Below are positions 16,901-53,120 of a stretch of DNA of 64,000 nt, in pieces; positions within the stretch are counted from its first letter, which is position 1, and every line of letters begins with the position of its first letter. Both the position numbers and the translations under genes were made by a program. The stretch covers positions 3,301 through 67,300 of the forward strand of contig JAAOMT010000618.1 of assembly GCA_016748015.1 (NCBI GenBank), given 5' to 3'. Under the pieces are notes generated by a model. The model was not told the origin of the DNA, did no database searches, and saw nothing but the letters and a program-made list of their open reading frames with translations. The DNA is from Geosiphon pyriformis uo1 (taxonomy: Eukaryota; Fungi; Glomeromycota).

Positions 16901-17737
16901 TCAGTAAAAAAAAACTTTGTTTTAGTCTATTTGGATGACATAATTGTATATTTAAAAACTTGGGATAAACATCTAGAATATTTACAAAAGATTTTTGACC
17001 TCCTAAAAAATGCTGGTCTTAAGATAAATCCAATCAAATTTTTCTTTAGATAACAATCCACCCAGTTTTTTGGTTATTTTATTACAAAAAATGGAATCTT
17101 TCTTGATCTAGCTAAAGTTGAAAAAATTCAAAACATTAGACAACCAATGAATGTTCCTGAACTATGCTCTTTTTTTGGTTTGGCTTCTTACTATCACAAA
17201 TTTATCAAGGATTTTTATAAAATTACTTTTTCTCTTAATTAGCTACTCAAAAAAAATGTTAATTATTACTGAAGCACTTATTAACAAAAAGCTTTTAAAA
17301 CACTGAAGAAAAAACTTGTTACTGAACTAATCTTTAAGCAATCTAACCTAAACCAACTTTTTATTCTCTATATTAATGTATCTGGCTATGAACTTGAAAC
17401 TGTTTTCTCACAAAAAAATGAAAATAGCAAGGAACATGCTATAGCATATGTTAGTAAATCTCTTACATCAGCAGAAAAAAACTATTCAGTTACTGAACAA
17501 AAATGCTTAGTAGTAGTTTGGACTACTAGTTATTGGGATCAATATTTTTTTGGTGTGAAATTCCTAGTAGTAACAGATCATCAAGCCTTGGTTTGGCTGT
17601 ATAACAAAAAAAAGCTGGAATATAAATAGATAACTTATTGAATACTCTATCTAAATGAATTTAACTATAACATTTAACATTACAAAGGAGCTAATTATCA
17701 AAATGCCAATGCTTTCTCCAGACTTACCATTCAGTAA
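13990..17737 (+). pseudogene. element A gag-PR-RT-RNaseH
   Basis: Gag DLIKWLDDFERTATANQY, PR LILNSESFVSII, RT KTAFIIKYGIYEF...VYLDDIIVY, RNaseH ...NANAFSRLTIQ*. Confidence 0.85.
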
Positions 17738-17801
17738 TAGTACAACTTTTCAACCAAACCAACTTAAATTATTAGTAACTCCCTTATAAACAAACACAAT
17801 A

Positions 17802-19080
17802 ATAGACTTAGACAACTACTCTGCCTTAATAAAATTTTTGGATAAAAGACAATACTCACCAGACTACACTCAACAGCAAAGAGAACATTTGTGTAAACAA
17901 TCAAATTTTTATTTAATCTACTAGAACCAGTTATATAAAAGAAACAAAAAAGATCTTGACTATTTCCAAAAAATTATCAGATTTGAAAAATGAGAAATTG
18001 TAATATATAATATGCACATTAACTCATTAATTAGACACTTTAAAAAAACAAAAACAATTCAGAAAATCTTAACTCACTATTATTAATCTACCTTGGGAAA
18101 AGACATTGCTAAGTACATTAAAATCTATGACATCTGCCAAAGAAAAGACAAATCCAATCAAAAAAAAAATATCCATCCAATTTCTGTTGGTCAACTATTT
18201 GATAAAATATTGTTGAATCTTTAACAATAACTTCTAAAGGCAATAAATATATTATTATAACTACTGACTATTTTACAAAGTGAGTAGAAGCAAGAGCCAC
18301 TCCAGACTAAACAGCAGTTTCAATAGCCAATTTTATTTATAAAGATATTATTTGCTGTCATAGCTGCTCCAAAAAACTTTTATCTGATAGAAAAAGAGCT
18401 TTTCTTAGTACACTAATTAAAGAACTTTGTAAAAAAATAGAAATATGTCATAAACTTTTCTCTTTTTACCACCTTCAAAAAAATGGTTTAATGAAATATT
18501 TTAATAAAACATTATGTAAAACCTTAGCCAAAACCAGTAAAAAAACAAACTTATAAAACAAAGTACTGTCTTTAGCTTTGTTTGTTTATAGAACTGTAAA
18601 TTATAACATAACAAGTTATAAATTTTTTTATCTGCTCTATGGACATATAACAACACTATCAATAGAAATTGATATTGAAACAATATTCTTTAAAGAAATC
18701 ACAATAGAGAATTATAAAAACATTTTGCAAAGAAAACTTGATACCATTCTTAACTTATTGATAGAAGCACAAATAATTGCCTTTGAAAAGATAAAACAGT
18801 TCTAAGAAAAGCTTAAGAAAAAAAAAACTTATAAAACACTTTTTTTAAGTATTGATGACTTGGTTTTGGAATATTGCTTAAACAAAAACAATGTTTATGA
18901 TAATAAATTCTCTAGCCAGTAGAAAAAATCTTTTATAGTTAACAAAATTTTAAACAATAGTTCTTATATCTTACAAAATTAATATGGAACAATCTTCAAT
19001 GATTGTCTTATTCATAATACATAATTTAAGAAATATTATAAACAATTTGATTAGTTGTTTATTGTGGTAATACCAATTTA
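17802..19080 (+). pseudogene. element A integrase (separate reading frame)
   Basis: Zinc-binding remnant, YIIITTDYFTK, LLSD and YHLQKNGL motifs. Frame is +1 relative to the RNaseH stop at 17735. Confidence 0.8.
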
Positions 19081-19109: not shown

Positions 19110-19802
19110 ATGCACCATTCCCAAAACAGAAGTATCTTCAATTAACATAAATAATTATTTTCTGGATCAAAACATTTAAAACACTTTCTATACTCTCCAT
19201 GAGTATTAAATCAAAAACTATTCAAATGCTATTCTGACCATTAGAAAACAGACCATTATAACTAATAATAGTGGAACACATACTGTTATTAGATCTAAGA
19301 AAACCACTACCAGAAAAAAAAAATTGGTAACAAAATAGATAAATATTTATTGAAAAATATAACAGCAGTTATACTCTCACTTTACAGCACAATTAAAAAA
19401 ACAATTCAAAAAATATTGTACATAGACAAAAACTTGTCATATAAAAAGCAACTAGAACTTTATAATCACTTTAGTAAAATTATAGAAAATATGAAACTCT
19501 TGAAAAAAACAACTTTAGAGATACAGATAGAATTTTTGAGCATTATATGGTTAGATATTCTAAGAGTTTTAACTATTGCTAAAAGAGCTAAAACTCTAAT
19601 ACAAAGATTTGGTCTCTTGGATACAAAATTTATTTCACCTCAAGTATTATATACTTTATTTACAAAAGGCTTCAACAAACTAGTTAGCTTTAAGTTAAAC
19701 AAAACTTTTCAAATAGATTACATTATAAATAACTTGATTTTGCTGGAACTCAATCTCTTTGAAAAGAATGATATTATGATTGAAACTCATACTTTTTATT
19801 AA
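19110..19802 (+). pseudogene. element A ORF3 (unknown protein downstream of IN)
   Basis: A 150-codon open stretch (19350-19802) runs through the PPT into the 3' LTR and ends ILLELNLFEKND..., like ORF3 of D. Confidence 0.55.
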
Positions 19803-20555
19803 TTATTACATATATTAATCACTGATGTCATATAATTAGCCACCTTATTTTTAGATACTGATTATTGATCTGATCAATAACCTGATCATTAATCTAATTA
19901 TTGACCTGATCATTAACTTGATCATTAATTTGATTATTGATCTGATTATTAACCTAATCAATGACCTAATTATTGACTTGATTATTAATTTGATTATTGA
20001 TCTAGTCATTAACTTGATCATTGACTATTTTTAATAGCTATATAAACAATAAATTTTTTAGCTATAAAAATACATGTCAGAAATCAATGAAATCAAATAA
20101 ATAAAATAATAACTTTTATCTTAATTCTTCTCTTATTGCTAATTTTTTTTTCTTTACCTTCAAATATGCAAACATCTTAGAATAAAAGATTGTTTGTTAT
20201 TTTCTACTCTTTTTTTGAAATATGTAATTGTAGCATTTAAAAATTATTGAATAAAACATGACTAAAAAGTATATCTAATATCTAATATTAAATTTTAAGA
20301 GTGCTAACATGAAACATAGAATTATACCAATATGTAATTATTTATTAACAGTATAGACTATCTTTTTACCTTCAGATTCTACAGTTATTTTTTAAAAAGT
20401 ATAGCAATTGAGATATTTTATGAGATTGATTTCACACATTAAATCTATACTTATTCAATTCACTCTTTGAAGTTGAATTTTTTTTGATTTCTTTTATAAC
20501 CCTACAATTCTGTTCTCTCTTACTATTCATTAGCTTATTACTCCAACTTGTAACA
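19772..20555 (+). repeat. 3' LTR of element A with expanded 12-bp tandem array
   Basis: Matches the 5' LTR. TGATCATTAACC-like units span ~19858-20026. Confidence 0.9.
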
Positions 20556-22538: not shown

Positions 22539-23712
22539 TTTGGTGCTCTCTGTAAGATATAATTCTACAGAAAACCAGCACCAACACAAATCTAAAAGTG
22601 GCAGAATCAGAAAACATAGGAGCAAATTATCTAGAATTCATGAAATCCTTATTTCAAATCACAACCACATATCAGCAGAATCAGCTTTTAATTTCTATGT
22701 CAACAAAAGAATTGCCTATCTGTTAGGAACATCAATAAATATTGAATCGGCAAGAAAAGCCTTTTACAGTGAATTAATTCAAAATACCAACCTGCCAACA
22801 AATCACAATTTCGCCTCCATTATCATGGAAATCAACAAAGAATTTGAACACCACACACAGCAAAGATATCTCATTACTTATGTAAACAAAGGCAAAGGAA
22901 AACTGCAAACACCAGCAGTAACACCCAAAAAAATACAACCACCTACTTGGAAGAAAACAAAAGTTGAGTTCTCAACTAATCCATTATACCACTATACACC
23001 CGGAAGTGCTATTAATATTATATTTACTGGCATGGTGTTATTCATAAAATATAGAAAGTATATTAGCATATAAATTAGCCAATCATAGGTAGATGTAGGA
23101 AATGTGGAATTCCAGGATTCTTCTCAGAGAAATTGCAGAATTCCAGGAATTGCAAGATTCTCACATGAGGAATTACAGGATTCCAGAATTCCAGGATTCT
23201 TCTCAAAGGAATTGCAGAATTCCAGAAATTTCAGGATTCCTGACATGAAAAATTGAGGAATTGAGGAATCTTAAATACGTATATATAGCAGTAGTATCAG
23301 AAGTTAGAAAATTAGTCAATGAGACTTAGAGTCAATTGATTTGTGGAGTCAATTAGACTTATAGAATCAATTAGACTCGCAAAATCATAATTATTAAAAT
23401 TACAAAAAAAAAATCCTTTAGTGAAATCTTGTAGTTTTAGATTTGATCTAAGCAACCTTCTAGTTCCCAATCATCAAATAAATAATTATTCACTATTCCA
23501 ATCCCCTTGTCACTATCAACACTTCATGTTGATAGTAATTGATACTTAACCCCACTGGAACAATAGCTCTTGATCACAGCTATTGACAAAATACTAACTT
23601 GTGCATTGTTTTGGCTCATTTCTTTATTTTTTTTTCTTTTATTTTCTTTCATTCTTTGATTTTATTATTGTATACTAATTAAGTAAGGATTAAAGCACTG
23701 AGTTATTGACGT

Positions 23713-24695
23713 TGTTACCAGAGGTTTTTGGTTTTTTCTTAACTCTTGTATGTTTTTTGTAATGCTGTTAATTCACGACTATGGGAAGTGTTTGAACCTC
23801 TGATAACTGAATTTTATCTTCAAATTATAGAAGATAATTTGAACTGCTGGGCTTATAAATAGAATGGCCAATTCCATGCCAGTTGCTTTATGTAGTTACA
23901 TTGTAGTAAACGTCAACTCTTTTCCAAGAATTGCTCATCTGGAAGCTCACTAAAAATGTGTAGTTACTTTGCTGTGAAAGTCAACTCTTCTACAGGAATC
24001 TTGTCTATAGGCTACCCTAATGATTATAATAAGAAAATAAAAGAAAGAAAATAAAAGAAATGTAAAAGAAATAGAATTCTGTCAAGGGAAACATTTTCTA
24101 TTCAGGCCTGGAGTCACTAACAGTTTACTGAAATTGGTAGCTAATCAATTTCAAAACATTAGTTGGGTTTTGGAGATTTTTCCAAGTGCAATAATTAAAA
24201 AATTTGGTTTTTTGAATTATTTGATATTTATTTCTTTTTGTGTGTGTAGAAATGGTTTTAAGTAATAAATCTAAAGTAAGATACATTTTTTTGAAGAGAG
24301 AAGCTCTTCTTTTATACAACTTATTGTAACACTATTCTATGAACTTGAACTGTGTTTTTTTTTCTACAATTTCACTGAACTAAAGATACATTTCGGCAAA
24401 CTATAAGTTATTTCTGTAAACTATTAGATATTTCAGTGAACTGTCAATTATTTCGGCAAATTTCTACAAATTTTGGCAAACTTTTGAATATTACATATTT
24501 TAGGGTATTGCATGATTGATCATCGCACTTAGATTACATTTGTGTTATGTACAAATTGGGTTATTAATTAAATAATAATTTCGGACATTTTGCTAATGTA
24601 ATAGGTAATAACTTGAAATAATAATATATGCTAATTAATGATAGGAATAAAGATAATTTCATGCTAAATAATATTTCTAATTTCGTCTGATAACA
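23713..24695 (-). repeat. 3' LTR of element D
   Basis: Near-identical to 32600-33581 and 38148-39135. Confidence 0.93.
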
Positions 24696-25383
24696 TAACC
24701 TCCTCCTCAAGACTGAGCTCTGTTAAAATCCAAGTACTGTCTGTAATTTCCAGATAATAATCCAAAATTATTGAAGAAATTTGGTCTGAAAATTGTTGAA
24801 ATTTCAGTTCTGTGAGCTTTCCAATGTATTGAATCTTCAAAGGTTGTAAAATTGGGTTTTGTAGGACGTTTTCACAGGTGTGAAATAGGTCATAAAGTTT
24901 AAGAGCAGTTCTTAGTTTATAATGACTGTTTGTAGGTCCAGCTGTTGTCTTAAATTCATTGTGAAGTTGTTTCCAAATAGCTTTTTTTGTGAGGTTTGCT
25001 GCTGTAAGCTCCTATTTTCATTTGTAAAGTGTTTTTTCAATGTAGAAATATCTATATATTGGAGTATAGTTGTAGTTTTTTTCATTAAGACACAGTTGAA
25101 GTTTTTGTTGAATAGTAGCATTTGGTGGAATACTAATAGGAATGAGCATTAAGTTTTCTCTTAAAGCAAGCTTTAAAAGTTCTGGCAGGTGAATTCCAGA
25201 ATAACTTCTTGTGTTCTTCTTATACAGGTGATATTTTCGTGAATTTGGGGCTAAATTTGTAACTATTTCTGTTTGGGTATAATTAATGTGGTTTTCAGTA
25301 ACAGTAATGGATAATTCGGATATTGTTTTTAAAACTAACATTAGTTTTTGGGATAATTGTTGAATGTTTTGAGGAATAGTCAT
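24664..25383 (-). pseudogene. element D ORF3 (~239 aa, two in-frame stops)
   Basis: MTIPQNIQQLSQKL...YRYFYIEK...TALKLYDLF...IGKLTELKFQQF...WILTELSLEEEVMLSDEIRNII*. The only interruptions are TGA/TAG codons revertible to CGA/CAG. Confidence 0.7.
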
Positions 25384-25499: not shown

Positions 25500-26888
25500 T
25501 AAGTTAAGTGTTCAAGTTGGGAGATTGTTCAATGATGACTATTGGTTCTAAATTTCAGGGAATATCTTCAGGATTGATTAAAGAAGAATGTGTACCAATT
25601 TGTGGAATTAATAGTTCAGGATTGTTTCTGGAATTATAGTGTTTCAAACAATCTCTATGTGCAACTTTTGTTAGGATTTTGTCATTAAGTTTTAGCTTGT
25701 ATGATCCATTGCCTAAGACTTCATGGATAAAGAATGGTCCATTCTATTTATTTTCAAATTTCCCACTCTATTGTTTTTTAGCTTTAGTTCTGTGTAAAAG
25801 AACTTTGTTTCTAATTTTAAATCCATTGGTAACTAGAGACAATTTGTCATCATGCTGTTCTTTTTGTTGAGCTTGGGAGTGTTTAATATGGGTGGCTACT
25901 ATTCATTATTTTCCTTCCAATGTGCTAAGCAGTGTATAGGTTTTTTGTTGTAGTGTTTCCTGAAAGTTGTCTTTATTAATTGGTTGTACTGGGTATGTTT
26001 CCATTGTAAAACTAATTGGTAACATTGCTGTCCTTCCATAAGTTAAATCAAATAGTATGTGTTTTATGATATCTTGTTTTAGTGTTCTATATACTAGTAA
26101 CACTGATGGAATAAAGAAATCCTATTCTTGCTCAAAATCGGTTGAGACTTTGGTTAATGATTTACACAATGTTCTGTTGAAACATTCTACAAGTCCATTT
26201 GTTTGTGGATGGTAGGGCAAAAATAATGGTCTCTTGATATTAAATCGTCCACAAATTTCCTGGATTAAATTGTTCAGAAATTGTGTTCCTTGATTAGATA
26301 AAAGTTCTATTGAGTATCTATGTCTACAAATGATGTCTTTGTAGATAAAGTTTGCTACTGATTTTGCATCTGCTCATTGAATGGCTTGGGCTTCAGGCCA
26401 TTTGGTGAGATAGTCTACAGCTACTGCAATATAATGGTTTCCTTGGTTTGTGATAGGGAGTGGTCTGACTAAATTGATACCAACTCAGTTAAAAGGCTGT
26501 TCAACTTTAATTGGGTTTAAAGGTTCTGTAGGGCAAATTCCTTTTTTTTTTGACAACTATCACAAGACTTAACATATTCATAAATGTCTTTTTTCATTTG
26601 AGACCAAAAATAATATTCTAGTGTTCTCTGGGTGGTGCTGTCTTTTCCTAGGTGTGCTGATAAAGGATCTGAGTGCATGTTATATAAAATAGTTTCTTTT
26701 TTATGTTTTTGTATTAATCTGAGTGGATTGTCTAAGTTTCTGAAGTTTTGATAATAAATCATGTTGTTGTGTAAGAAGTATTGTTTGGCTTGTTGTTGTA
26801 ACCAATGTTTTTTATCTAAGGACCAATCTGTTGGGATTGTTAATGTCTTCAAATATTGTTTAAGATTGTTGTAGTTTTCAGGATTCAT
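25500..26888 (-). pseudogene. element D integrase (own ATG at 26888)
   Basis: MNPENYNNLKQYL...HSDPLSAHLG...CDSCQ, VDYLTKWPEA, SNQGTQF, YHPQTNGLVE, GPFFIHEVLGNGSYKL. Confidence 0.88.
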
Positions 26889-26934
26889 TGTTTGTTGTTT
26901 TGTTGTTAATTCAAATAGGTGTTGGTTTTGTATT

Positions 26935-29900
26935 CTAATCTTGTCTTATTCTTGAGAGACAATCAACATTGGTGTGGAGTTTTCCTGGTTTGTGGTATAC
27001 AATGTATCAGTAATTGGCTAGAAATTCTGTCTATTGAGTTTGTTTTGCGTTTAGCTAAGTGTTTTTGTTCTGAAGCCATTTGAGTCCAATATTATTAGTA
27101 ATAATATCGAATTCTTTGGGTCTGAAGTAAAGGTTGAAGTGATGTAAGGCCCAGATTACTGCTGTAGTTTTTAATTCTGTTGCAGGGTAGTTCTTTTCGG
27201 CTGGTTTTAATGTTCTGTTAGCATAAGCAATTACTCGCTCATTTCCATTGTTATCTAACTGTGATAGGATGACACCAAAGACAGTATAAGAGGCATCTGT
27301 TGCTAACTGAAATCAGTTACTGAAATCTGAGTAGGCAAGAATTGGAGCTGTCATTAGTTTTTCTTTGAGAATTTCAAATGCATTTTGGTATTCAGCAGTC
27401 CATTTGTATTTGACATTTTTGGTGGTAAGCTGGTTGAGAGATTTTGCGATTTCTGAGAATCCTTTGATAAACTTCTAATAGTAGGAGACTAACTCTATGA
27501 ATTCTCTTAGTTCTGTAGTGTTTTGAAGAGTTTTGAAGTTTATGACAGTGCTGATTTTTCCAGAGTCTGGTTTGATTCCATCTTTACTAATGATGTAACC
27601 AAGAAAAACCAAGCTTGTTTTTCCAAAGTAGCATTTTTTGATGTTGAGTTTCAGTCCTGCTTTTTGTAATCATTAAAAAACTTCTCACAGATGTTTTAAG
27701 TATAATTCGAATGATAAAGAATAAACATCAGTATCGTCAAGATAAACAACTACTGACTTCCAAAGAAGTCTTTTGTACACAATATCCATTAATCTCTGAA
27801 ATGTTGCTGGTGCATTGTATAATCCAAAAGACATTACATTGAATTTGTAGTTTCCTCCTTGGATTGTGAAGGCTGTTTTGGGACAATCTTTGGGGTCCAT
27901 GGCAACTTGCCAGTATTTGCTTTCTAGATCTAGTGTTGAAAAGTATTTGGCCTTTCCAAGGGCATCTAACATATTATCAATTTGGAGAAAGAGATAGGCA
28001 TCTCCAATGGTGATACTGTTAAGTTGTCAATAATCAACACAAAATCGTATCTTTCCATTTTTCTTTTTAACTAAGACCACAGATAAGGCCTATAGACTTA
28101 TTGATGATTAGATAAGCCCATTGTTGAGCATCTGTTATATTTCTTTGCAGATAAATTGGTGGCTTTCTGGAGCAACTTGGTAGGCTTGCTGTCGCCTTGG
28201 TTTGGCATCTCCTGTATAGATTTGGTGTTGGACCAAATCAGTTCTTCCTAAGTCATTGTTGTTTTCAGCAAAGATATTAACAAATTCTGCAATTAGCTCT
28301 TTGAGCTGGCTCTGTTGTTGTGGTTCAAGTTGTCTCATATTGATTCGAGATAGTTTTTCTATGCCAACATAGTAGTTTTTAGAGCTGGGGTTTGGGTTGA
28401 TTTTTGGTAGTAAATGTCCAATAATTTCAGAGAAATTGGGGACTGTTTGGGGTAATTTTTGTTGAAAGATATTATTGTGAATAACTCCAATTTCTAAGTT
28501 ATTTAATAAAACTATGGGGAAATTGTTGGGATTGTAAAAAGTAACTCAGATTTTCTTTGTTCCTTCTGGAATATAAATGTTTGGGATCGAGATATTATGT
28601 TCCAAGCAGATTTGTTTGTTGGACTCAAAAATTTGTTGTGTGGTTGTTGGCTTTTCACAAGTGTAAATTTCAGAGTGTTCTCCAAAAAGTGAAATAGTAA
28701 TTGGTTGTGAAAGTCATAAAATCTGGTGAGATTCTTTCTGTTTATTGAGGGCTATATTTACTGGAACTGTGAATCGTCCAGTTGAACCAAAACCTTGGAT
28801 TTTTCTTTCACTTTTTTCCAATAGTTTTCTTTAATTGACTAATTGTAAACCCAAAATGTTGATTAAGAGTAAATAAATGGCTTGGGCAATTTTCTTGGCA
28901 TGTTTAATCTTAAATGACTTGTCAGCTTCATTTTAGAATATTACTGTTATGTCACCAGTATATCCAGCATCAATTATTTTTTCTCTGACATTGATTTCTT
29001 TGCTTGCCAGAGAAAACCAGGAGGCGATTTGAATCATTGCTCCTGGCAGGATTTCGAGAGCAATTTTGAGGTTGATTTTTGTGAAAGATTTGGGTTTGAG
29101 AACAAGAGTATCCTTGTCTGGATATCTTAGGTTATATCCAGCATCAATTTCATGTGCTTTTTCAGGTTTTATTCTTTGTTCATTGTTGTTGAAGTATTTG
29201 AGTTGTAAGACAGGCTGATTTTTAATGAGATAGATGTGTGTTGTTTCAATTTCTTCTGTTGCTTCAGGTTCTCCAAATTCAATTTCATATTCATCATTTT
29301 CACTGGGCAAAAGGATGCTAAAAGCATAGCATTCAGAACACCATTGTTCATCACAAGGCATTATGTATTCCTTACATAATTTAATGTTCATTTGTTCTAG
29401 CTGTTGAGCTTAAGCTTTTTTAGTCGGGTAGATGTGACTTGCGATTTGATGGTGCACTTCTACTTCATCTTCATAATCAAATCCAGCTAATTCTATGGTG
29501 TATTCAATGTATTTTGCTTCTTTTATTTGACAAACATCTTCTTTGGTAGCTCCATTAACTAATGTCATTGTTAGGTTGAAAATCATCTCAGCATCATGGA
29601 GGTAATGATAAAGTTTGTTAAAAGCATTGTTGTATGCTGCATCAAAAGGTGTTCCTCTTTTGACTTTTTCTGAAATTGATAAAGCATATTGGCAGGTTTG
29701 ATCGCAGACTCCTCCTCTTATTGCTATATCAATCCAATTGCATTCTTCTGGTAGCATATTTCCACAAGTCAAACAAGGGGTATTGTCCCATTTTCTACTT
29801 CTTTTTATTAGATGGCCCCATTATTCTCTGTGGCAAGTCTTGCAGTAATAACAAGTATAATTTTCATATTTTTCTTCAGGTGAAATGCAGGCTCCCATTG

Positions 29901-32554
29901 AGAAGAGTTTCTTGTGGCAGTCTTTGCATTTGAGTGGAATGTAAGGATGTCATTTTTTTGGTTCTGGTATAGAATATGGGATGTTTTATCCAGGGGTTTC
30001 TGGTTCCTCTGGATATGAGTTTGTTGCAAAATATGTTTGCTTAGTTTCTTCAGCCCAGTTAGATGTTAATTTAAGTGCCATAAATGTTTCAACTACAGGC
30101 TTTTTTTCTTCTTTTTCAAATTCGAAGACAGAGGTTTTTTCTGATCATTTGTTGAATGTACCACAAGTAGCGGGTACTTGGGCATGTTGTTCTTGATAAG
30201 AGAGTTGTAATTCTTGGGTTTTCCAGTCTAATTTTATATTGGCTTTTTGGAGCCAATTATTTCCAACAAGGGCTTGATATTGGGACGTGTTCATTACAAG
30301 AACTTTAACTGGAATAATGATTCTATCAAGAGTGAATGGAAAATTGTCAATTTTTTCTACTGGAGTCTTTTTCATGCCATCAGCAGTAACAATTACTGTT
30401 TAAGCTGGTCAGTTGACATTTCTCTTTAATTGTTGTATTAACTGGTAGGTGATGATGCTTTTGGCGGATCCACTATCTAAGATCAAGCAAATTGCCTTTT
30501 TTTCAACTTCTGCTTTAGTGTATATAGCAGTAATTGCTTTTTGTTTGTTGGTGGCTGCATTGCTAAGCAGAAATGGTGACTCATTTGCTTTGAACTTAAA
30601 AGAAAATATATCTGAAAGATTGGCATTTTCAGCAATTTTGGCTGGTGGTAGGAGTATAAGAAAAGTTTTGTTGTTGTGCTGCAGCTCTACCTTCCAAGAG
30701 TGCAGTATGGTAAAAATTCTGTTCTTCAGGTATTGTAAGATAGCTAGGTTGAGTATGATAATGGGTGAGTCTTGGCTGAACTGAATTTCAGAAAACTAAT
30801 TGGTTATTTGGGTTGATTTTGTTGTTGTTTGTTGTAAATCGATTTTGTGGTGCAAATTGGTTTTGTTGAACCAATCTTTGAGCAGGTACTTGGTAATATT
30901 GAATGGGTTGTTAATACTGTTGTTGCATTGGCTGTGAAGCAGATTGATAGTAGTCAGTTTGATATTGTGGTCTTGGTGGATAGTAAGCTGATGGTAGTGG
31001 TGGTTGGTAATAAGATTGTTGTGGTGAAGGGTAACATTGATTACTCCTGTTTTGTTGGTCTCATTGTAGCTTTCTGCAATCTTTTTTCCAGTGGCCAAGG
31101 ATTCTACAGTAATAGCAATTCTGAAGCTGGTTATTAGAAGATGATACGAAGTTGTTTTGATTCTGTCTTTGAGGTGGTTGATATCTTTGGGGTTGCTGTT
31201 GTTGTTGGTTGGTGAAATAGTTTTCGACTTTCTTTGTGAGTTGGTCAATTTTCTCTTCAGCTGCTGAGCTGGTCTCTCCAATAGCTAAGTTCATGAGTTT
31301 TATATGATTGGCTTCTTCCATGACCATTTCATATCTCTTTGCATGCTAAATGGCAGAGTTTAAATTTTCTAGGGCATGTAGGCAAACCTTTTTAATCAGT
31401 TTATCCTTTAAACCAGTGATAAATTGATCCAAGATTTGAGCATCGAAATAATAATCATTAGTTTCAAGTTGGCAAATTTGTTTGAGAAGTTTGTTGAATT
31501 TCCCAATATAAGTCATGACAGATTTAGAGAGTTCTTGTTTGATATTGTGAAAACGATTTTGAAGTGTGATTGAGGTGTTGTTATTGGTGAATTGTTCTAA
31601 AAAGGCAGTTTTGAAAGCTGTTCAGTCATTAAAAGGGGTGGTCAAGTTTTCGAACTATTTGCCTGCTGTTCCTTTGAGAAAGTAGAGAATTGTTCTTAAC
31701 ATTCTGGCAGCATTCCATTCATTTGCATCTCCAGCTTTAGTAACTTGGTTGAGCCATTCTTGGGAACTGGTCTCAATGTCTTCTCTATTAAATTCAGAGA
31801 TTTTTGTGATGTATGCTGTCATTTTGTCTTTTTCATTTTCACTGTCTATTAATTCTTCTTTAGATATTTCAGAGTCGTTTTCTTTGTTCGCTGCTGTCTC
31901 AAAGTGTTCACTTCGATTTTCAGCTAGAAAGTCAAGAAGATTGGAACTAGTTTGAAGGAGTTCTTGTTGTCTGGTGGAACTTCTAAGTGATGTAAAATCT
32001 TCTAGTCTTGCAAATCAATTTAAGGGTGAATTAGGTGTTTGTGCTTGTGCAAATGAAGCTGGAAAAAATGTGATAGTAAGTGGAAGTTTTGAACTGGTTC
32101 CTTGTTCAGGTGTTTGTAAGTGTTTGGCAGTTGTTTTTAGTAGTATTGAAGTATTTGGGGTGGTTTTTGAGTATTGCTTCAATTTTTGTTTGCCTTTGTT
32201 GTTTGTTTCTGTCTCTGATTCAAAATCAATAGAGTATTGAGACTGCACTGGATATGTTTCTTTACAGTACTTGATAATGTTAAAATTAAGTTCTTAAAAG
32301 TAAGTGGCAAGTGTTTCACTGTTAAGGTCTTCAGTTCTCAACTGTGAATAGTGTACTAAATTATTGTAAAGATTGCTTCTAACTTCTGAGATATTGTAAT
32401 TTCCAAAAAAATAATTGTTGATGCGGTTTTCAATGTATTGGTATACTGATTTCTTAACAACTTCAATTCCATCTGGAATGTTGAATCTTTGCTTGCAGTG
32501 GGTGTAAATTGACTGGTAATACTCTAGAGTTGTTGCATTTGGTGTGGTCGCCAC
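26935..32554 (-). pseudogene. element D gag-PR-Cys-rich-dUTPase-RT-RNaseH
   Basis: CCHC knuckle CYYCRILGHWKKDC, PR LILDSGSA, RT YLDD, RNaseH ending LSRIRQD*. Confidence 0.88.
28770..29200 (-). pseudogene. dut: dUTPase domain of element D
   Basis: PEKAHEIDAGYNL, QIASWFSLASK, IIDAGYTGDI, KIAQAIY and GFGSTG correspond to dUTPase motifs 1-5. Confidence 0.88.
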
Positions 32555-32599
32555 TTTGAAGTTGTTTTTGCTGTGTTGTTTCTGTGGGAAAGCACCAAA

Positions 32600-33581
32600 T
32601 GTTACTGGAGGTTTTTGGTTTCTTCTTAGCTCTTGTATGTTTGTTGTAATGTTGTTAATTCAGGACTATGGGAAGTGTTTGAACCTCTGATAACTAAATT
32701 TTATCTTCAAATTATAGAAGATAATTTGAACTGCTGGGCTTATAATGGAATGGCCAATTCTATGCCAGTTGCTTTGTGTAGTTACATTGTAGTAAATGTT
32801 AACTCTTTCCCAAGAATTGCTTGTCTAGAAGCTCACTAAAAATGTGTAGTTACTTTGTTGTGAAAGTCAACTCTTCTACAGGAATCTTGTCTGTAGGTTA
32901 TCCTAATGATTATAATAAAAAAATAAAAGAAAGAAAATAAAAGAAATGTAAAAGAAATAGAATTCTGTCAAGAGAAACATTTTCTATTCAGGCCTGGAGT
33001 TACTAACAGTTTACTGAAATTGGTAACTAATTAATTTCAAAACGTTAGTTGGGTTTTGGGGATTTTTCCAAGTGCAATAATTAAAAAATTTGGTTTTTTG
33101 AATTATTTGATATTTATTTCTTTTTGTGTGTGTAAAAATGGTTCTAAGTAATAAATCTAAAGTAAGATACATTTTTTTGAAGAGAGAAGCTCTTCTTTTA
33201 TACAACTTATTGTAACACTATTCTATAAACTTGAACTTTGTTTTTTTTTCTACAATTTTGCTGAACTAAAGATACATTTCAGCAAACTACAAGTTATTTC
33301 TGTAAACTATTAGATATTTCGGTGAACTGTCAATTATTTTGGTGAATTTCTACAAATTTTGGTGAACTTTTGAATGTTATATATTTTGGAGTATTGCATG
33401 ATTGATCATCACACTTAGGTTACATTTGTGTTATGTACAAATTGGGTTATTAATTAAATGATAATTTCAGACATTTTGCTAATGTAATAGGTGATAATTT
33501 GAAATGATAATATATGCTAATTAATGATAGGAATAAAGATAATTTTAAGCTAAATAATATCTCTAATTTTGTCTGATAACA
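32600..33581 (-). repeat. 5' LTR of element D
   Basis: Direct repeat of 23713-24695, adjacent to the PBS. Confidence 0.93.
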
Positions 33582-34649
33582 ATATCATGGATAGTCTGGT
33601 AAAAGACCCAGAGATAAGGGTAGAAGTATATATATTATCAGATAGCTTATTAGAAGGACACAACTGCCAGAATAAATCCAGCCACCAAGCTGAGAAAGAA
33701 ATTGGGAAACAACTTACCAACAATGACAACACCAATATTAAATCTCTGTCTATTATACAAAAGACTCTATCAAAACCTTCAGATACGAAAACTTTCAGAT
33801 TACTAACATCCACATCAAGATAGCTTTTGAGCATCAAGTTATGGGTTTGTTATTTAATTTCATAGCAGAAATAATCACCTGTAACATTTGGTGCTTCCTG
33901 TAAGGTAAAATCCTACAGAGAACCCACACCAACAAACACCATCTAAAAGTGGCAGAATCAGAAAATATAGAAGCAAACTATTTAGGATTTGCAAAGTTCT
34001 TATTTCAACACTATTGTTAATACTTGGGATTAAACCACAATCATATATCCACTGAATCAGCCTTCAATTTCTACATCAATGAAAAGATTTCCTCTTTGTT
34101 AGGAACACTAGTGAATACTGAATCAGCAAGGAAAACTTTCTATAGGGAATTAATTCAAAACACCAACCTACCAACAAATCATAATTTTGCATCTATCATC
34201 ACTGAGATCAACAAAGAAATTGAACATCACACCCAACAAAGATATCCAATTACATACGCTAGTAAAGACAAAGGAAAACTACAAACACCAGCAATAACAC
34301 CCAGAAAAATACAACCACCTACTTGGAAGAAAAACAGAATTGAATCTCTAAGCAACCCATCCTACTATTATATATCTGGAAGCACTATCAACATATCATT
34401 AATAGACGTGTCCCCATCAACTACAACATCAGCATTTGGATGATTCTCATTCCAAAGTAGACAAAGGAAAACAGAATTATTAGGACTATACAGCAAATAC
34501 TTTGAGGGATTTAATTCACAATTATCAACCCCATCAGGACTTTGATTACTACTGTTTTCACCAGATTTCAGAATTTTTAATCTGTGGGAAGTAACGGAAT
34601 CAGAAAAAGAGGAAGAAGAATCAGAGGATCAAGAATTTACTTACCAACA

Positions 34650-35440: not shown

Positions 35441-35713
35441 AAACACCAAACAATATATCACACTTTTAGATCTTACAATGAAGCAGGAATTAATTCAATT
35501 CAGTGATAATAATGAGAGCATTATGTTTAAACATGCATATAATACAGACGCAAGATTTGAACGTGGATATTCTGGACAGACCACTACAGTTAAAAATCTC
35601 AATCACGTATAAAATTAGATTTACAAATAGCAATAGAAATTACCACAACAACATTGATACAAAAGAAAAATTTAGAAGATTTTGCAGAAGCTCAATATTA
35701 AAGAAGAGAATAA

Positions 35714-36676
35714 TGTTACTCATAAAATATAGGAAGTATATTAGCATATAAATTAGCCAATCATAGGTAAACATAGTAAATATGGAATTCCAGGATTCCT
35801 CTCAGAGGAATTGCAAAATTCTAAGAATTGCAGGATTCTTACATGAGAAATTGCAGGATTCCAGAATTTCAGAATTCCTCTCAAAGGAATTGCAGAATTC
35901 CAGAAATTTCAGGATTCCTAACATGAAAAATTGAGGAATTGAGGAATCTCAAATATGTATATATAGCAATAGTATCAGAAGTTAGAAAATTAGTCAATAG
36001 AACTTAGAGTCAATTAATTTGCGGAGTCAATTAGACTCATAGAATCAATTAGACTTACAAAATCATAATTATTAAAATTACAAAAAAAAAAAGCTTTTAG
36101 TGAGATCTTGCAGTTTTAGATTTGATCTAAGCAACCTTCCAGTTCTCAATCATCAAATAAATAATTATTCACTATTCTAATCTCCTTATTATTATTAATA
36201 CTTCATGTTAATAGTAATTGATACTTAACCCCACTGGAACAATAGCTCTTGATCATAACTATTGATGGAATACTAACTCGTGCATTGTCTTGGCTCATTT
36301 CTTTATTTTTTTTTATTTTATTTTCTTTCATTCTTTGATTTTATTGTTGTATACTAATTAAGTGAGGATTAAAGTGCTAAGTTATTGATGTCATGGATAG
36401 TCTGGTAAAAGACCCAGAGATAAGAGTAGAAGTATATATATTATCAGATAGCTTACCAGAAGGGCACGACTGCCAGAATAAATCCGACCACCAAGCTAAG
36501 AAAAAAATTGGGAAACAACTTACCAACAACAATGACACCAATATTAAATCTCTGTTCATTATACAAAGGGCTCCATCAAAACCTTCAGATTATTGACATC
36601 CACATCAAGATAGCTTTTGAGTACCAAGTTACAGGTTTGTTATTTAATTCCACAGCAGAAATAATCACTTGTAATA
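35714..36676 (+). repeat. 3' LTR of element C
   Basis: Matches 23036-23712 joined to 33586-33886. Confidence 0.92.
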
Positions 36677-38147
36677 GTGGTCACATCAAACATGACATTA
36701 GCATTTGGACAATTCCTATTCCAAAGTAAACAAAGAAAAGCAGAGTTATTAGGACTATACGGTGTGTATTTTGAAGGATTTAACTCGCGATCATTAACAC
36801 CATTAGAACTCTGATCACTACTGCCTCCTTCAGATTTCAGAATTTCTGATCCATAGGAAATAATGGAATCAGAAGAAGCTGAAAATCAAGAATTCATTTA
36901 CCAGAACCTGATTGCTGAAAACCCGGAATTGAAAATTCCGAATCTTCAAACTCAGCAAAATCTAAACCCAAAAAATTTGGAAATCAAAACTCTAAACATT
37001 CAGACACTGCCAACTCAGGATAATCGAAACCCCAATTTAATAAATTAACAAAACTTACCTTCAGTAATCATTATCAATCAACTACCAATTAATTCAATAG
37101 CCAAACCCATACAACTGCCACTTCAACTACCACTCCAACAATCCGTGCAACAACAACCATTTCAACTACTACTACAACAACCCAATTTAGATCCAATGGC
37201 CTATGCACCAATCGCAAAATTTGACAATTTTATCAGTAAAGAGAATGACACCCAAATATGGCTCAATGACGTTGAAAAAGCCATAGTAGCCAACAAATGA
37301 AATGATGATAAAGCTCTTCAAGTGATCCCTTATTTTCTCAAAAATACTGCCAACTCATGGTATTAGAGCCTAACTGCCAAACCACAAACCTTCAATGAGT
37401 TTAAAACAGAATTCTTGAAATACTTTAGTAATAACAATAGTATTAATCACTTGACCAACACATTCACCATCATTAAACAAAAAGATACAGAAGCAGTTAC
37501 TACTTACTTGGGATGCTTCCATAGAAATTTGCACCAAATTCAGGCAATCCAAGCTGATTACTTTATGGCACCACAGATCTTGAACCAGTTTATCAGAGGA
37601 TTGTACAGTAGTATCCTTCAGCAAGTATGTTCAATGCATCCAGTTGATCTCCCAACTGTCATCACCCACGCCAGAGATTTTGAAGCAGCCGAGTTAGAAG
37701 CCAACCATACTCAAGCTGTAAATTTAGTAATAAACAGATCATCTGACTTGGATTTCAAACTAAAACAATTCAGTAATACAATCAATCAGAAACTAGAGAG
37801 ATACTTAACTGACAATCATGCAATCTATTAACCACCACAATGACGCAATAATTCAGGAAACACGAATCATTTCCAAAATCAGCTGCGTCCATTAACATCA
37901 TCATTACCCAATCAGCTATGGCAGCTAGAAATGTGTGTTTGCCACAACTGTGGTAAACAAGGTTATATTAGAGCCGACTGTTGATTTTATAGCAACAATT
38001 CATGATTGGGAAATCAATATCAAAACCCCAATTGCAGATTTCAGACTCCGAATCACTACCCAAATCAAGACCAATATCAAACCAATTACCTGCCAATAAT
38101 GCAGCAACCAATCTATTAACTGCCAGTATATCAACCACAGCCACCAG

Positions 38148-41199: not shown

Positions 41200-41640
41200 A
41201 AATGGTTCAGCAATAATAATGAAGGTATCATGCCAGAACACACACATGATACTGATGCCAGATTTGATTTGAGATATTCAGGAAAAGATGTTATTGAATT
41301 GGAACCACATTTGCACACTTGCATAGATCTCAAAATAGCCTTGGAAATTCCAGCAACAACAATGGTTCAACTAGCTTTGAGGAGTAGTTTAGTGAAAAAA
41401 GGGATAAACATCAGAGGAGGAATAATTAATATAGGATATGTAAGAAATATTATTATCATGCTACAAAATGACTCAGAAAAGACCTATATTATAGAGCCAA
41501 ATGAAAAGATAGCACAGGCAATATTCCTGCCTCTGGTTAAAATAGCTCAGTTAGTATCAGTGGGAAATAGGGAAGAATTAGGGATAACAGCAAGAGGGAT
41601 ACAGAGATTTGGATCAATGGGTAGAATAGATGTACCAGTC
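41200..41640 (+). pseudogene. dut: dUTPase domain of element B
   Basis: PEHTHDTDARFDL, QLALRSSLVKKG, GGIINIGYVRNI, EKIAQAIF, RGIQRFGSMG. Confidence 0.88.
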
Positions 41641-43517
41641 AATATGGTGAAGAAAGAAATTATTGGCCAAGGAGAAATTATTTCAACTGGTCAAACAATT
41701 TCTATTCTACCATATAGCTAATACATGTTAACAATAGAAAAGAGAGAGAAGGAGCAAGAACAGATTTTTGAAGCAGAAGCAACTCTTTGTAAATCAGGAG
41801 AAATTGGACTTATCAATCTACACATACCAGCCAAGAGCCATAACCATATCAAAATTTCCATCTACAACAACACTGAAAATGTTGTAGAGATACCAGAAGA
41901 AACCACTCTTGGATATTTAATCATGGAAATTGAAGATCAAGCACCAAGCAGCATTCCAGATTTTCTACAGCTTTGTGAATATGTGGACATTACATCACAA
42001 ACCATCTACAGACAAAATGAATGTTATCTGTTACAGCCAGAACAATTGGAACAGATGAACATAGGAAACTTAAACCCACTTCAATGTATGCAGCTTAAGA
42101 TGTTGCTTAATAATTTCAATGATATCTTTGCCAGCAAAAACAAATTTGGCAGAACTGACATCATCCAACACCAGATCAAAACTGGAAATGCAATGCCAAT
42201 TAAACAAAGAGCATACAGGGTACCACCAGCCAGCCATGAAATTATCCATTAAGAGATCAACCGAATGCTTAACAATGGATTAATTCAGCTATCAATGAGC
42301 TTATAGTTGTCACCAGTAGTACTCATCTGTAAGAAAAATAGAAAAATCTGATTTTGTGTAGACTACAGAAAACTCAATGGTGTAACTCATGGTAACAGCT
42401 ATCCAACTCCACAGATACAAAAACTATTCAATACTTTCGGTAAAAACAAATGGTTTTTAACATTAGACTTGAATAGTGGTTACTGGCAAATAGCCATAGA
42501 TCCAGCCAACAAAGAAAAAATGGCATTCACCACAAGAGAGGAAAACTTTGAGTTTAAAGTTATGCTATTTGGCTTAACCAACACTCTAGCTACATTCCAA
42601 TGGCTAATGGAAATTGTGTACACTGGCTTATTGTGGAAATCAGTAGTTGTATACTTGAATAACACTAATGTGTTCTCAAAAACATTCAATGATTATCTAC
42701 ATCATTTCCAATAAGTGTTCAAAAGACTACAACAAGCAGAATTAAAATTGAATACAACAAAATGTTTTTTTGGCAAAACAGAACTAAAATTCTTGGGACA
42801 TATAATTAGCAAAGACGGCATAAAAACAGATTCAAAGAAAATAGAGATAGTAAAGAACTTTCCAATACCAATCAATGTAACCGAACTGAAATCATTCTTG
42901 GAATTTGCTAGCTATTATCGACACTTTATTAAGAACTTTTCAAAGATAGCTCAGCCACTCAATTATCTCCAAACCAAGAATGTGAAATATAAATGGACCA
43001 AAACTCAACAAAAAGCTTTTGACACCCTAAGAAAAAAGCTCATTCAAGCTCTAATACTAATATATTCAGATCATAATAAACCATTCATCATTACTACTGA
43101 TGCATCAGATCAAGCATTGGGAGCAGTACTATCTTAGAGAGAATTGGATAGAAGAGAACATCCAGTTGCAAATGCCAGCCAAGGTTTGACTCCAGCTGAA
43201 AAGAACTATAAAACACCAGAATTAAAATATCTAGCAATCTATTGGGCAATTATGAAATGAAAAAAATACTTGAGCCAAAAGTTTGAGGTGTACACAGATC
43301 ACAAAGGATTGAAATTACTCCAAAAACAAGAATTTGGAAATGGAAGACAGTCAAAATAGAAAATAACACTTGTGCCATATACTTATACTATACATTATAA
43401 AAAGGGAAAAGACAACAGAAATGTCAATGGTTTGTCACAAATGAGACAAATCTAAGAACATTTTAAACCCAAAAATATAACAAAACCAAAACAATACTCA
43501 CAAAAATATAACAAAAA

Positions 43518-44900
43518 ATGAACACACAAAAATATCAACAACTTCAACATTATATAGATACTTAACAGTTTAAAGAGAAATTATCTCAATCAGAACAAAA
43601 GAAGATCAAACAACAATCCAAATATTTTATTACTCACTAAAATATACTTTATCAGAAAAATAGAAAAGATTCAGATCAACCAACCAGAGTAATTACAGAA
43701 CCAGAAAAAGAGACAATACTGTTCAACATATACTCAGATCCAGCTACAGGACATTTTCATAAAGAAGCAACCATAGAAAGAACCAGAAAGAGATAATATT
43801 GGCCATTAATATATCCAGATATCATTTAATATGTGCAAAATTGTGATGTTTGTCAAAGAAAAGAAGGAACAAGACCCAGCAAACCATTGAGACCAATCAA
43901 AGTGGAACAACCATTTGACTGTATTGGAATCGATTTAGTCAGACCATTGACAATTACCAGCAGAAAAACAGATATATTGCAGTAGCTATGGACTATCTTA
44001 CTAAATGGCCAGAAGCCAAAGCAATTCAAAGAGCGAATGCAGAATCTATTGCCGAATTCATTCATCAAGATCTGATTTGTCAACATGGATGTCCAAAAGA
44101 ACTATTATTAGACCAAGGAACCCATTTTGTGAATAGAACATTAGCAAAACTAAGCTAAAGATTCGGAATTAAGAGACCATTATCATTACTATACCATCCA
44201 CAAACCAATGGATTAGTTGAATAATTTAATAGAACATTGTGTGAAGCAATAGTGAAACTCAGCCAAGAAAACCAGAATGAATGAGATTTGTTTATACTAT
44301 TAGTATTATTTGCTTATCAGACAATAAAGCAAGACACCACACAAGCAACACCATTTGAATTGATATATAGTAGAACAACAACATTACCAGTTGAGATAGA
44401 GGTTAACACATATCCAACTGAACCAATAACAGAAGAAAATTTCCAAGAAACATTGTTAAGAAGAACATATGACTTAATAGAAACATTGGAAAACAAACGA
44501 AAAAGAGCAGCTGATAATATACAAAAGTCACAAGAGAAACAGAAAGAAAGACATAATAATCAACTACCAGACAAACCAGTTGAATTCAAGATTGGAGACA
44601 AAGTACTCTTACATCATACCAAAGCGGAAAAACAATGGAGTGGAAAATTTGACTCCAAATAGGATGGACTATTTCACATAGAAGAAATTCTAGGGAATGA
44701 AGCTTACAAATTAAGACTGGATAACAAAATCTTAACCAAAGCAGTACATGGAGATTGACTGAAACCATACCACAACATTACACCACCATCCACCAGTAAT
44801 ATTCCACAATTAAGAGTACAGAAGATACTAGTCCAACCAGAGAAGATTCCATGAGATCTAGAACCAATCATTATCATTGACAACAACATGTTAAATTAAT
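43518..44900 (+). pseudogene. element B integrase (own ATG at 43518)
   Basis: MNTQKYQQLQHYI..., GHF...CDVCQ, MDYLTKWPEA, DQGTHF, YHPQTNGLVE, GPF/Y-like motif, ending EPIIIIDNNMLN*. Confidence 0.88.
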
Positions 44901-44953: not shown

Positions 44954-45530
44954 ATGGAAATTACAGACAACATCCACTCACTAGCACAACAACTCTTTCA
45001 ATTGATTCAACACCAAGAGATAGAAATTACAATTAATTAACAAACCATTCGATATCAAGACACTAAAAAGACATCACCACATAGAACACAGAAGAAAACA
45101 GAAAATACCATTGACAAAATCATTGCAAAAGTAAAATTAGCAATAAAAGAGTCGACAAAAGAGTCACTATACCAAGAGTTGACTAAAGAAACTTGAAATT
45201 GATGGATACAACAATTTCCAAGAAACTATTGTTATTTTTACTTGGGACAACATGTGAATATCCAGAATCTATATATAGATAAAACAAAGTGATTATTCAA
45301 CACCAGAATACTACAACAATTAGAACATTTTGTGGGAAAAAACAACTTATCCACACAGGCCCAAGCCATATACCGAATACACACAGCATTTCAAGATCAA
45401 CCAGAAATCTTACTTAACAAAGCAATGGACACGGTTATCAGTAATTAATTAGGAAAGATTACCAATGCTCAATTTGAAGAATTACAGACTCAAATAACAC
45501 AAGTAATTTTTGAAAATGAAATTCAGGAAA
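44954..45530 (+). pseudogene. element B ORF3
   Basis: MEITDNIHSLAQQLFQLI...YCYFYLGQH...AIYRIHTAF...LGKITNAQFEEL aligns by eye with D ORF3. Confidence 0.7.
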
Positions 45531-50390: not shown

Positions 50391-53120
50391 AGTCTAACCA
50401 CTAATTAGCATACAAAGATAAAACAAAATATCCCAAACTAAATGTGGCTCATGTACTTACTACACGTGACTGACCACTCAGGGCCATCAAGACAACACTA
50501 CACACTCACCAGAATCCTATTACTATTATTCAAACCAAAAAAGAACAAACAACATCTACGCGAACTGAAACTGACAGCAAAAGATTTCATTACATTTAGC
50601 ATGCGAACAACACTATTAGATAGCAGCCTAGGCAGACCACATAGCAGAGCAAAATTCCCATCATCATCGCAAAACAAACCAATTTTTTCCATACCAATCT
50701 TAAACTTAGATCTTAACAGTTACAGATGATTATGATGGTCACCTGTAAAATAGCAAACAAACTCAACGACTAGGCTTTTTTTCTGTTACCAAAAATGGAA
50801 ACAGCTTTACCAATCCAATCTTGAAAAACAAAACTCTTGTACAAAACAGCATATATATTGACATCCAAAGCATTTGCAAGTGTGTTTAGCATTGAGGACA
50901 AAGCAGGAAAATGAGACCCTACCAAAGATTTCTACAATCCAATGTAGTTGGCCATAACCTCCAATCATAAAAGTGAATTCATAGAACAAGTAAAAGCATA
51001 ATCAGAGAATTCGACGTTACCACACATCAGACACAAAACACTTAGATAACCAATGTCATATAATCTCTTATGGACAGCCACCAGCAATCTAGTGTGAACA
51101 GTCTTTATCAAATAAGTACACAGGACAGCTGACTTTTTATTAGTAAAACCCACCAGTATATGAGAATCTGGATGCCAAACAGAAGCAATATACTCCTAAT
51201 CAATGCAATAAAGAAATGAGCTGGCCAAGACACTCACACCAGAACCAGCTTTCCATAAGACATGGCACACAATTCTGCAAACATCATGAATAAAATGCCA
51301 AGCATTACCAAAAACCACTAGACCATCTGCCACAAAAAACCTATTATAAACTCCAACTAGAAGAAACAAGCTAGATCAAGATACAACATGGGCCATAGCA
51401 TTAGTCTGATTATTACCAAACACACCAAAATATTTCTTTACTTTAACCCATCTCACAGTAATGTTTTTTAATTTGATCAAATTAGCAATATAATATCATT
51501 TCACCCAGCATCTGTTGCAAAAATCTGGTCGATCCAACTCACATTCAGACATGTATACATCCAAAACTGCTTAACTATCAGAATGAATAACAACAAAACA
51601 GGATAATGGAACACATTTCAAAGCCACAGCAATTACTTGTAATTCTGCCAGCATAGAAAACAACAGACCTTGAACCCTAACACCAATACCCAAATCAATC
51701 TCAGAGAAATAAACAGCTGCTCCGCAAGCCACACCTAATATGTCCAGACCATTCAATGACCCATCAGTGAAAATATTCAACTTCCCTGTTTAGATTTCAT
51801 GTAGGTGCTCACAAACAACCAAGAAATCACTAGAACAAAAAAAACCAAAACCATCCAACACTTCATCATTGTTTAAATCTACTAGACTACCACACATGTG
51901 CACAGAAGCCCTACTAAACCAAACTGGCACTGGACCCTTAGGGCTCAACCTCTTCCAGCAACAAAAAGTCTTCCAATCCATGACTTGAACCCACTTAGTT
52001 AGCAAACAGTCACCAAAAGCAATACCAAAACGTTTCAACAAATAGACCATGTTAAAATAGCATAAAGCACTCAGAATCTCAGACATTGAAAAATGGCCAG
52101 GCTTACAAAATGCACTAAGTAATTTGTCAACCAAAAAAACACCCATATTCAAGAAAATCCTTACAACTCCAGCCAGAAAATTGTTCAGCGGACAAACTCT
52201 CAACTTTACTGGATGGTACAAGAGATTCAAAAGAGCCCAACCTAAAACTTGCAAGTCCAAAGTGTAGTGCTCAAACAGACAACTGAGAATCCCAGGTGCA
52301 TTGGAGAAATTAATCACTAAAGCAACCTTGGCTTCAGCTTGCACTTGCTCAAAAAGCTTCAAACCATATAGAGATAAATGGTACAATGTCTCAATAGAGA
52401 AATTCTTTGGCAAAAACACCTTAGCTCTAAGTTCTTTCCTGATCATAATATCCCATTTTTGACACACACTTTTAACAACAAAACTGAATTACATATGATA
52501 GCATATAATAAGCTGAAGAACTGCTGAAACCAGGTAAAAAAACTGCTTATCCAACACTGCCTTCCTAAGAACCAAATTAGAAAAGAACCTAACATCCACA
52601 TATGCCTTGGCAAGACTTGGTTTCGAAAAGCCTTCTGTAGACAAAAAAATACCAAGATATCTATGAGATTCACCTTTTTTCACAATAGAAATGAGTTGGC
52701 CACTGATATACAAGGAGGCATCTGTTATCCTCTGATTGATAAGAATTGCCACAGTTTTGTCATTGTTAATAGAAATATTATTTATATTAAAAAATTCACT
52801 TGCAATATTTAAAATGTACTGTGTCAAGATTTGGCCATTACCAATTCAGATTGTATTATCAACAAAAACACCTGCAGCAAAAAAGGATGACATGCCACCA
52901 CTAGATTCTATCTTGCCAGACTTTGCCACAAAATTTGAATTGATCCTATAGCTACACAAATGTTCTTGTCTTTTGATTTTGCACAACAGAGGATCATAAA
53001 AAATCCTCCAGAGAAGTGAAGAAAACACTTATCCTGATCCAAACCATTGTGAACAATGTAACCATTTAACAAACCAAAATTAGTCATAATTTTATTAATT
53101 CTATTCTCATGGATATTCCC
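50390..53120 (-). mobile_element. 5'-truncated LINE with RT, RNaseH and C-terminal Zn knuckle
   Basis: FSSLLWRIFYDPLL...AGVFVDNTI (RT), IFTDGSL...AELQVIAVAL...HSDS (RNaseH), CLMCGNVEFSDYAFTC. Confidence 0.88.

Follow-up and report, generated by a model that had tools for sequence, protein, structure and literature searches.

What is encoded between the integrase gene and the 3' LTR of a retrotransposon when that stretch stays open, and what could it do for the element? The question is raised by a 64,000-nucleotide stretch of the Geosiphon pyriformis genome (the window), which self-BLAST resolved into a nest of decayed Ty3/gypsy elements: element D (minus strand) lies inside the 5' LTR of element C, C lies inside element B, and element A is separate. 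The assignment to Ty3/gypsy follows from the paired LTRs, the PBS, the PPT and the order PR-RT-RH-IN. Element D reads gag, protease, dUTPase, RT, RNase H, a stop, an integrase (IN) with its own ATG and, behind it, the open reading frame in question, ORF3. Its features are as follows.

23713..24695, minus strand: 3' LTR of D, 94% identical to the 5' LTR
24664..25383, minus strand: ORF3 of D, 239 codons, internal stops at codons 122 and 124
24696..24708, minus strand: polypurine tract of D
24709..24735, minus strand: conserved pre-PPT DNA motif of D, IL-x-E-L in one frame and DF-x-G-A-Q-like in another
24754..25068, minus strand: conserved, predicted helical core of ORF3, codons 106-210
25216..25242, minus strand: basic linker with PY-type putative nuclear signal; the D copy has LY in place of PY
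25264..25383, minus strand: predicted N-terminal helix and beta-hairpin module, codons 1-40, approximate, from a model made on the homologue P0269
25504..26888, minus strand: separate integrase ORF of D with its own ATG, decayed by a frameshift and stops
26935..32599, minus strand: PBS, gag, protease, dUTPase, RT and RNase H of D, decayed; gag 5' boundary approximate
32600..33581, minus strand: 5' LTR of D

ORF3 of D opens with an ATG at 25383, 120 nt past the integrase stop, and closes with a TAG at 24664-24666. An earlier note had described it as an ORF of ~239 codons interrupted by two C>T-type stops, and stop counts, shuffles and intact copies all agree with that description. The frame holds 2 stops where 17.5 would be expected, each of the other five frames has 14-23, and none of 5000 shuffles gave a count as low. 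Where D has its internal stops (TGA at codon 122 and TAG at codon 124), intact copies carry Q/R and W/L/R, respectively, so that both stops are of the transition type; transitions account for 53 of the 57 differences between the two LTRs of D. Decay in D amounts to 2 of 239 codons in ORF3 versus 9 of 400 in RT/RH. Two side observations concern the upstream part of the element. A dUTPase appears to lie between protease and RT, behind a Cys-rich segment, in both D (28900-29200, minus strand; Pfam E 0.004, below the cut-off) and B (41200-41620, plus strand; recognised by eye), and dUTPases in fungal Gypsy elements are already described in PMC2864245. In addition, an open stretch at 32294-32659 (minus strand) begins at the PBS of D, ahead of the point (~31822) from which gag can be recognised, and has a counterpart in C near 34021-34443; it could be an N-terminal extension of gag or a fourth ORF.

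Searches with the ORF of D returned 205 matches, and the 120 listed were all hypothetical proteins of G. pyriformis with up to 90% identity. A profile search across 1.84 billion representatives yielded 34 proteins, the distant members being P0267 (from ENA), P0269 (from JGI; its cluster also contains P0273 from ENA) and three Geosiphon proteins, and a further search added 49 matches, 48 of them from Geosiphon. The family thus comprises hundreds of G. pyriformis copies and two metagenomic types, which fall into seven groups (D1, D2, ENA, JGI, B, E and F); identity is 65% between D1 and D2 and 19-37% between every other pair of subfamilies. The JGI contig, L001, carries a near-intact element with the same layout as D: RT-RNase H is followed by an integrase ORF of its own with a single stop and, after a spacer of 319 nt, by an intact ORF3 of 230 codons, the PPT and the start of the LTR. 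E-type ORF3 sits behind an integrase tail in fused gene calls, and the C-terminus of P0267 implies that this protein, too, has the same place after an integrase. Many ORF3 variants were seen in Logan contigs (3807 contigs; among the 40 listed of 124 difference rows), and no relative was found in the viral contigs searched.

ORF3 homologues, or its C-terminal motif, had been noted in the other elements of the window as well. The relevant features are the following.

44954-45529, plus strand: ORF3 of element B (B subfamily), with five stops; a deletion has removed the ORF end, the PPT and the start of the LTR from this copy
19299-19802, plus strand: 3' ORF of element A, 167 codons, open, crossing its own PPT
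35670..35732, plus strand: pre-PPT motif, PPT and LTR start of element C; ORF3 absent

For B, the proposed homology was confirmed. The three motif pairs quoted in the earlier note do align, the profiles of the B and D families align across 180 columns (hhalign E 2.3e-5, probability 76%), the pair score is z 7.5 with 0 of 300 shuffles as high, and the B protein has 126 relatives of its own. Element A is more distant (its pol shares 33-39% identity with that of L001, compared with 47-55% for D and B), and its 3' region is stop-poor (9 of 230 codons are stops versus 20 expected). However, the suggestion that it encodes a distant ORF3 homologue failed: BLASTP gave no similarity, a six-frame scan of the window with the family HMM left the region unmatched at E up to 10, the hhalign score against the family fell inside the null, and the pair z was 1.7-1.9. 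The A ORF may belong to another accessory family or be a very distant member of this one. Element C, noted earlier for sharing the C-terminal motif, is not a further carrier: it is internally deleted and has lost the ORF3 region, and its "ILQKL" is preceded by a stop two codons upstream. Outside these features, we observed a GTAAG donor-like site right after the PBS in B and C (22539-22565 and 33887-33910, plus strand) and none in D; tandem 12-nt-type repeats within the LTR of A (19850-20030) and longer tandem arrays at 57006-58037; and an inverted pair of ~800 bp, 68% identical (47693-48487 and 52298-53102), which flanks a 232-codon ORF at 51790-52488 (minus strand).

The ORF3 proteins of D and L001 share 30% amino-acid identity (z 12.7), whereas the sole significant DNA match across the region is 41 nt at the PPT, a pattern that indicates conservation at the protein level without DNA similarity. 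We compared 72 of 73 near-full-length D-type proteins (45 D1 and 27 D2 copies) at the protein level. Fixed differences between D1 and D2 occupied 12 of 92 core columns versus 30 of 81 N-terminal columns (Fisher p 0.0003) and were more conservative than 219 private changes (p 0.005), the latter comparison being indicative only because post-insertion mutation bias differs from that of active lineages. Overall, these comparisons indicate that selection acts on the ORF3 protein. They bear directly on the idea that ORF3 was captured from the host or is a passenger without a role for the element. The nearest entries to the core in the ESM Atlas are unnamed Mucoromycota clusters of 127 and 190 aa (scores 0.93 and 0.92; the whole protein gave weak unnamed matches only), so the domain may exist outside these elements, as capture would have it. 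A passenger, however, would hardly be kept at the same place in subfamilies just 19-37% identical, with its core under selection and, in D, with decay no worse than that of RT/RH; we consider this explanation very unlikely.

Two further expectations concerned the C-terminus: that an IL-x-(E/K)-L motif is conserved in A, C and D, and that these frames read through the PPT into the LTR. The motif is present in all three. However, the neighbouring frame in D, A, C and L001 reads (D/F)F-x-[GRE]-[AT]-Q, with which intact B- and E-type ORF3s terminate before the PPT, and the pre-PPT DNA is conserved in D, A, C and L001 irrespective of which frame is open. The motif is therefore a cis element, readable in two frames, and not a conserved piece of protein. 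Read-through was confirmed for D, whose 3' LTR begins at 24695 and whose ORF3 crosses the PPT to end 29-31 nt within the LTR, and for A, which crosses its PPT; it was not for C, because of the upstream stop, nor as a trait of the family. The IL-x-E-L frame continues into the LTR and the (D/F)F-x-[GRE]-[AT]-Q frame halts before the PPT. The 316 fetched proteins include 227 that extend into the C-terminal part; of these, 90 read through, 63 terminate ahead of the PPT, and the ends of the other 74 are of different kinds or chimeric. In a 14-row tree, B, E and F stood apart from the read-through groups D1, D2, ENA and JGI (support 100/99; long branches raised a warning, and the natural end of F was not seen). 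The read-through tail is probably dispensable, and the PPT overlap would be a by-product, one clade's frame crossing a cis element kept in all clades.

We then asked what kind of protein ORF3 is. Its position and sense are those of an env gene, and the host fungus is coenocytic, which would suit either an env remnant or a movement protein that spreads the element between nuclei or hyphae. The absence of transmembrane segments and furin sites noted earlier was borne out in all nine family proteins analysed: no transmembrane segment was found in any (maximum Kyte-Doolittle 19-residue mean 0.27-1.29), none contained R-x-K/R-R and each had just 1-3 cysteines. As to a signal peptide, hydropathy is low and the predicted N-terminal helix is amphipathic. 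The hydropathy, furin-site and cysteine results, together with the soluble, helical predicted fold, largely refute the env version, and movement between nuclei, raised earlier as a role, gained no support; an env or movement function is accordingly the least probable of the explanations we weighed, by our estimate extremely so.

An AlphaFold2 model of P0269 made with an 18-sequence alignment (pLDDT 79, pTM 0.65) has a helix and beta-hairpin at residues 7-38, a disordered linker (residues 42-51 at low pLDDT) and a helical domain at 80-205 with pLDDT of about 90. An earlier model from a narrow alignment was poor (pLDDT 47) and was set aside. The hydrophobic pattern of the N-terminal module recurs in 7/7 subfamilies, and the modelled helix-hairpin possibly serves self-association. 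The linker is basic and contains R/K/H-x2-5-PY in six of the seven subfamilies; among homologues covering the linker, the motif occurs in 51/79 (D1), 10/32 (D2), 8/16 (E), 7/8 (F), 1/1 (ENA) and 2/2 (JGI) proteins, compared with a chance expectation of 1-4% per subfamily, and in 0/69 of B. Because the groups are related, this represents conservation of one motif, not six independent hits. Such a motif in a basic, disordered segment corresponds to the PY-NLS consensus as given in PMC2408616, and ORF3 is a soluble and probably nuclear protein.

The core runs Y-x-x-I-G, helix, G-[KP]-x-N turn, basic helix, K-[IL]-T-x-x-x-F, and keeps Y104, K131, G142, N145, R155, F160, L167 and K-[IL]-T (P0269 numbering); K131, R155 and the basic positions 149/151 are conserved across seven representatives. 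In the predicted structure, two helices joined by the G-[KP]-x-N turn carry the conserved basic residues. With isoelectric points from 5.4 to 9.7, not all members of the family are basic. Library comparisons gave this core no name. No Pfam family, HTH included, reached its cut-off in any of 18 members; PHROGs gave scattered weak matches in 3 of 18 (best E 4e-4); the best PDB match by sequence had E 0.12; and Foldseek against PDB and BFVD returned nothing at E up to 0.001. VIA-align reached a best Z of 4.5 among 48,161 chains (4.7 on a second look), which is background level, and its rows cover the core alone, so that the N-terminal module was barely tested and the absence of a match does not amount to a new fold. 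At the same background level stand the DNA-binding domains of the ParB family (Z 3.3-3.7), including Spo0J 1vz0 (Z 3.7, rmsd 4.7, 84 aligned) and KorB 1r71 (Z 3.4, rmsd 5.1, 95 aligned). The Y-x-x-I-G...G-x-x-N pattern also aligns with DUF1016_N (PF17761) in a trimmed comparison; untrimmed, hhalign gave a non-significant E of 0.15, with no Pfam match, and after post-hoc trimming E was 0.027 at a probability of 1.9%, beating 60/60 column shuffles locally and not globally. Both resemblances are no more than leads. A literature search, with Repbase outside its scope, gave no account of the ORF3 family or of a Gag-Pol / IN / ORF3 layout. Conserved across elements and absent from the libraries searched, ORF3 is a real, apparently undescribed accessory gene family, and the earlier description of a soluble, non-env accessory protein stands.

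The layout itself suggests one candidate function. A separate integrase ORF, preceded by an A/C-rich leader, is present in 4/4 elements (D, B, A and L001), starting at its own codon past the RNase H stop in D, B and L001; the same seems to hold for A, whose ATG is no longer preserved. The integrase ORF is in frame after the TAA in L001 and out of frame in D, B and A. The RNase H/integrase junctions lie at the following positions.

26888-26947, minus strand: junction of D
43381-43600, plus strand: junction of B
17681-17900, plus strand: junction of A
731-900 of L001: junction of the metagenomic element

Gag-Pol / IN / ORF3 is the layout of D, B and L001. The co-occurrence of ORF3 with split integrases that had been proposed as a check thus holds for these three and breaks at A, which has a split integrase and no detectable ORF3 homologue. 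An integrase with its own ORF cannot ride in Gag-Pol, which makes an integrase cofactor attractive: ORF3 would accompany IN into the particle or nucleus, or would stand in for a chromodomain by anchoring it to target chromatin. ORF3 lies directly behind IN in D, B, L001 and, by the fused gene calls, subfamily E, it has a predicted import signal, and the IN C-termini of D and L001 gave no chromodomain match, with only SH3_Tf2-1 found on both tails (in D, rve and SH3_Tf2-1 both match below curated cut-offs). Chromoviruses without a chromodomain do exist. Against this function stand element A and the target sites, which are 4-bp duplications in 4/4 insertions (ACGT/ATAT, ATGG/GTGG, TTGT/CTGT and CCAG/CTAG), all compatible with a central CG after deamination.

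23709-23712/33582-33585: target duplication
23032-23035/about 36677-36680: target duplication
21690-21693/46369-46372: target duplication
about 38144-38147/39136-39139: target duplication

With n=4, these sequences suggest CpG-centred integration. Ginger1 DNA transposons target CCGG and CCGT/ACGG, and their integrase groups with YPYY-type Gypsy integrases (PMC2836005); because the CG-centred sites here resemble those of Ginger1, IN alone may set site choice. The likeness to Ginger1 and the YPYY Gypsy elements (Gypsy-1_RO, DGLT-A1, Athila/Tat and Cer1) extends to TGT-type termini, a Y..L..[YF]L...P...YF-like IN N-terminus and 4-bp TSDs that, allowing for CpG decay, fit CCGG, CCGT/ACGG or ACGT, whereas the present elements differ in having LTRs, RT and a separate ORF3, the Ginger1 transposase being fused with OTU or Ulp1 domains. 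We therefore regard an integrase cofactor as unlikely, and hold to be equally doubtful the broader proposal that the lineage has abandoned the single Pol polyprotein, leaving IN a free protein and ORF3, for which no fold match was found, its dedicated escort.

The same layout could instead point to RNA. ORF3 might act as a factor of the Rev or CERV kind that exports or stabilises full-length genomic RNA where the IN and ORF3 messages arise by splicing, perhaps by binding the pre-PPT sequence, given that three ORFs require subgenomic or reinitiated translation, that both reading frames of the pre-PPT motif are maintained and that CERV of Cer1 (PMC10309623) offers a precedent; the Cer1 group, too, has a YPYY-type integrase. 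However, Pfam found no RNA-binding domain in the 18 members, the donor-like GTAAG of B and C is missing from D, and the A/C-rich leaders before the IN ATG would suggest reinitiation over splicing. This role is, in our judgement, as improbable as that of an integrase escort. As for replication, LTR stretches searched for self-priming contained no clean match to the PBS (8-9/11).

Our preferred reading, to which we assign a probability of about 0.4, is that ORF3 is a nuclear trans-regulator that binds the LTR DNA or chromatin of its own element and sustains its transcription. Its translation would begin at the ORF3 start codon, on a message that is subgenomic or reinitiated, and its import would follow the transportin/Kap104 route; its core would bind nucleic acid, and the protein would raise expression of the element, by transactivation or anti-silencing, in a host that methylates repeats. 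Binding to LTR or chromatin is favoured because the core has a helix-turn-helix-like arrangement and because CpG loss is heavy (observed/expected 0.18 in D and 0.21 in L001) in a lineage that methylates its transposable elements, as CG methylation of TEs in the related fungus Rhizophagus indicates (10.1101/2021.03.30.436303). Against a regulator count the B subfamily, which has no PY motif, the LY of the D copy, the absence of a Pfam HTH and the isoelectric points; all copies in the window, moreover, show heavy deamination, from which any anti-silencing failed to shield them. The evidence behind a trans-regulator also fits RNA binding or integrase escort.

Proteins of comparable standing are known from other systems. 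VANC proteins of the Arabidopsis VANDAL DNA transposons are sequence-specific, transposon-encoded counters to methylation, and may be like ORF3 in the role proposed for it; they belong to a different element class and kingdom, and no similarity was found. Insect and plant elements are known to carry additional sense ORFs in the interval from pol to the 3' LTR, and the fungal element Boty an antisense one (PMC7264820). The env-like sense ORFs of plant Athila and Bagy2 share the position, orientation and conservation across copies of ORF3 (PMC7264820), and the Athila/Tat group has YPYY-type integrases (PMC2836005). However, some of these plant ORFs have transmembrane segments and ORF3 has none, ORF3 belongs to a fungal host and a split-integrase element, and no sequence link between them was found. 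CERV of C. elegans Cer1 is an element-encoded, non-env nuclear accessory protein, as ORF3 probably is, but it is translated from a spliced mRNA and its export of genomic RNA was shown by experiment (PMC10309623).

LTR sequences make up 41% of the G. pyriformis genome (PMC11952901), whose annotation lists hundreds of ORF3 copies as hypothetical host genes, so that recognising ORF3 corrects the gene catalogue of this fungus. The function of conserved non-env accessory genes in LTR retrotransposons is mostly unknown, and ORF3, being small, soluble, well modelled and available as intact natural copies, is directly testable. The three-ORF layout, finally, raises the question of the route by which an integrase outside Gag-Pol reaches the cDNA.
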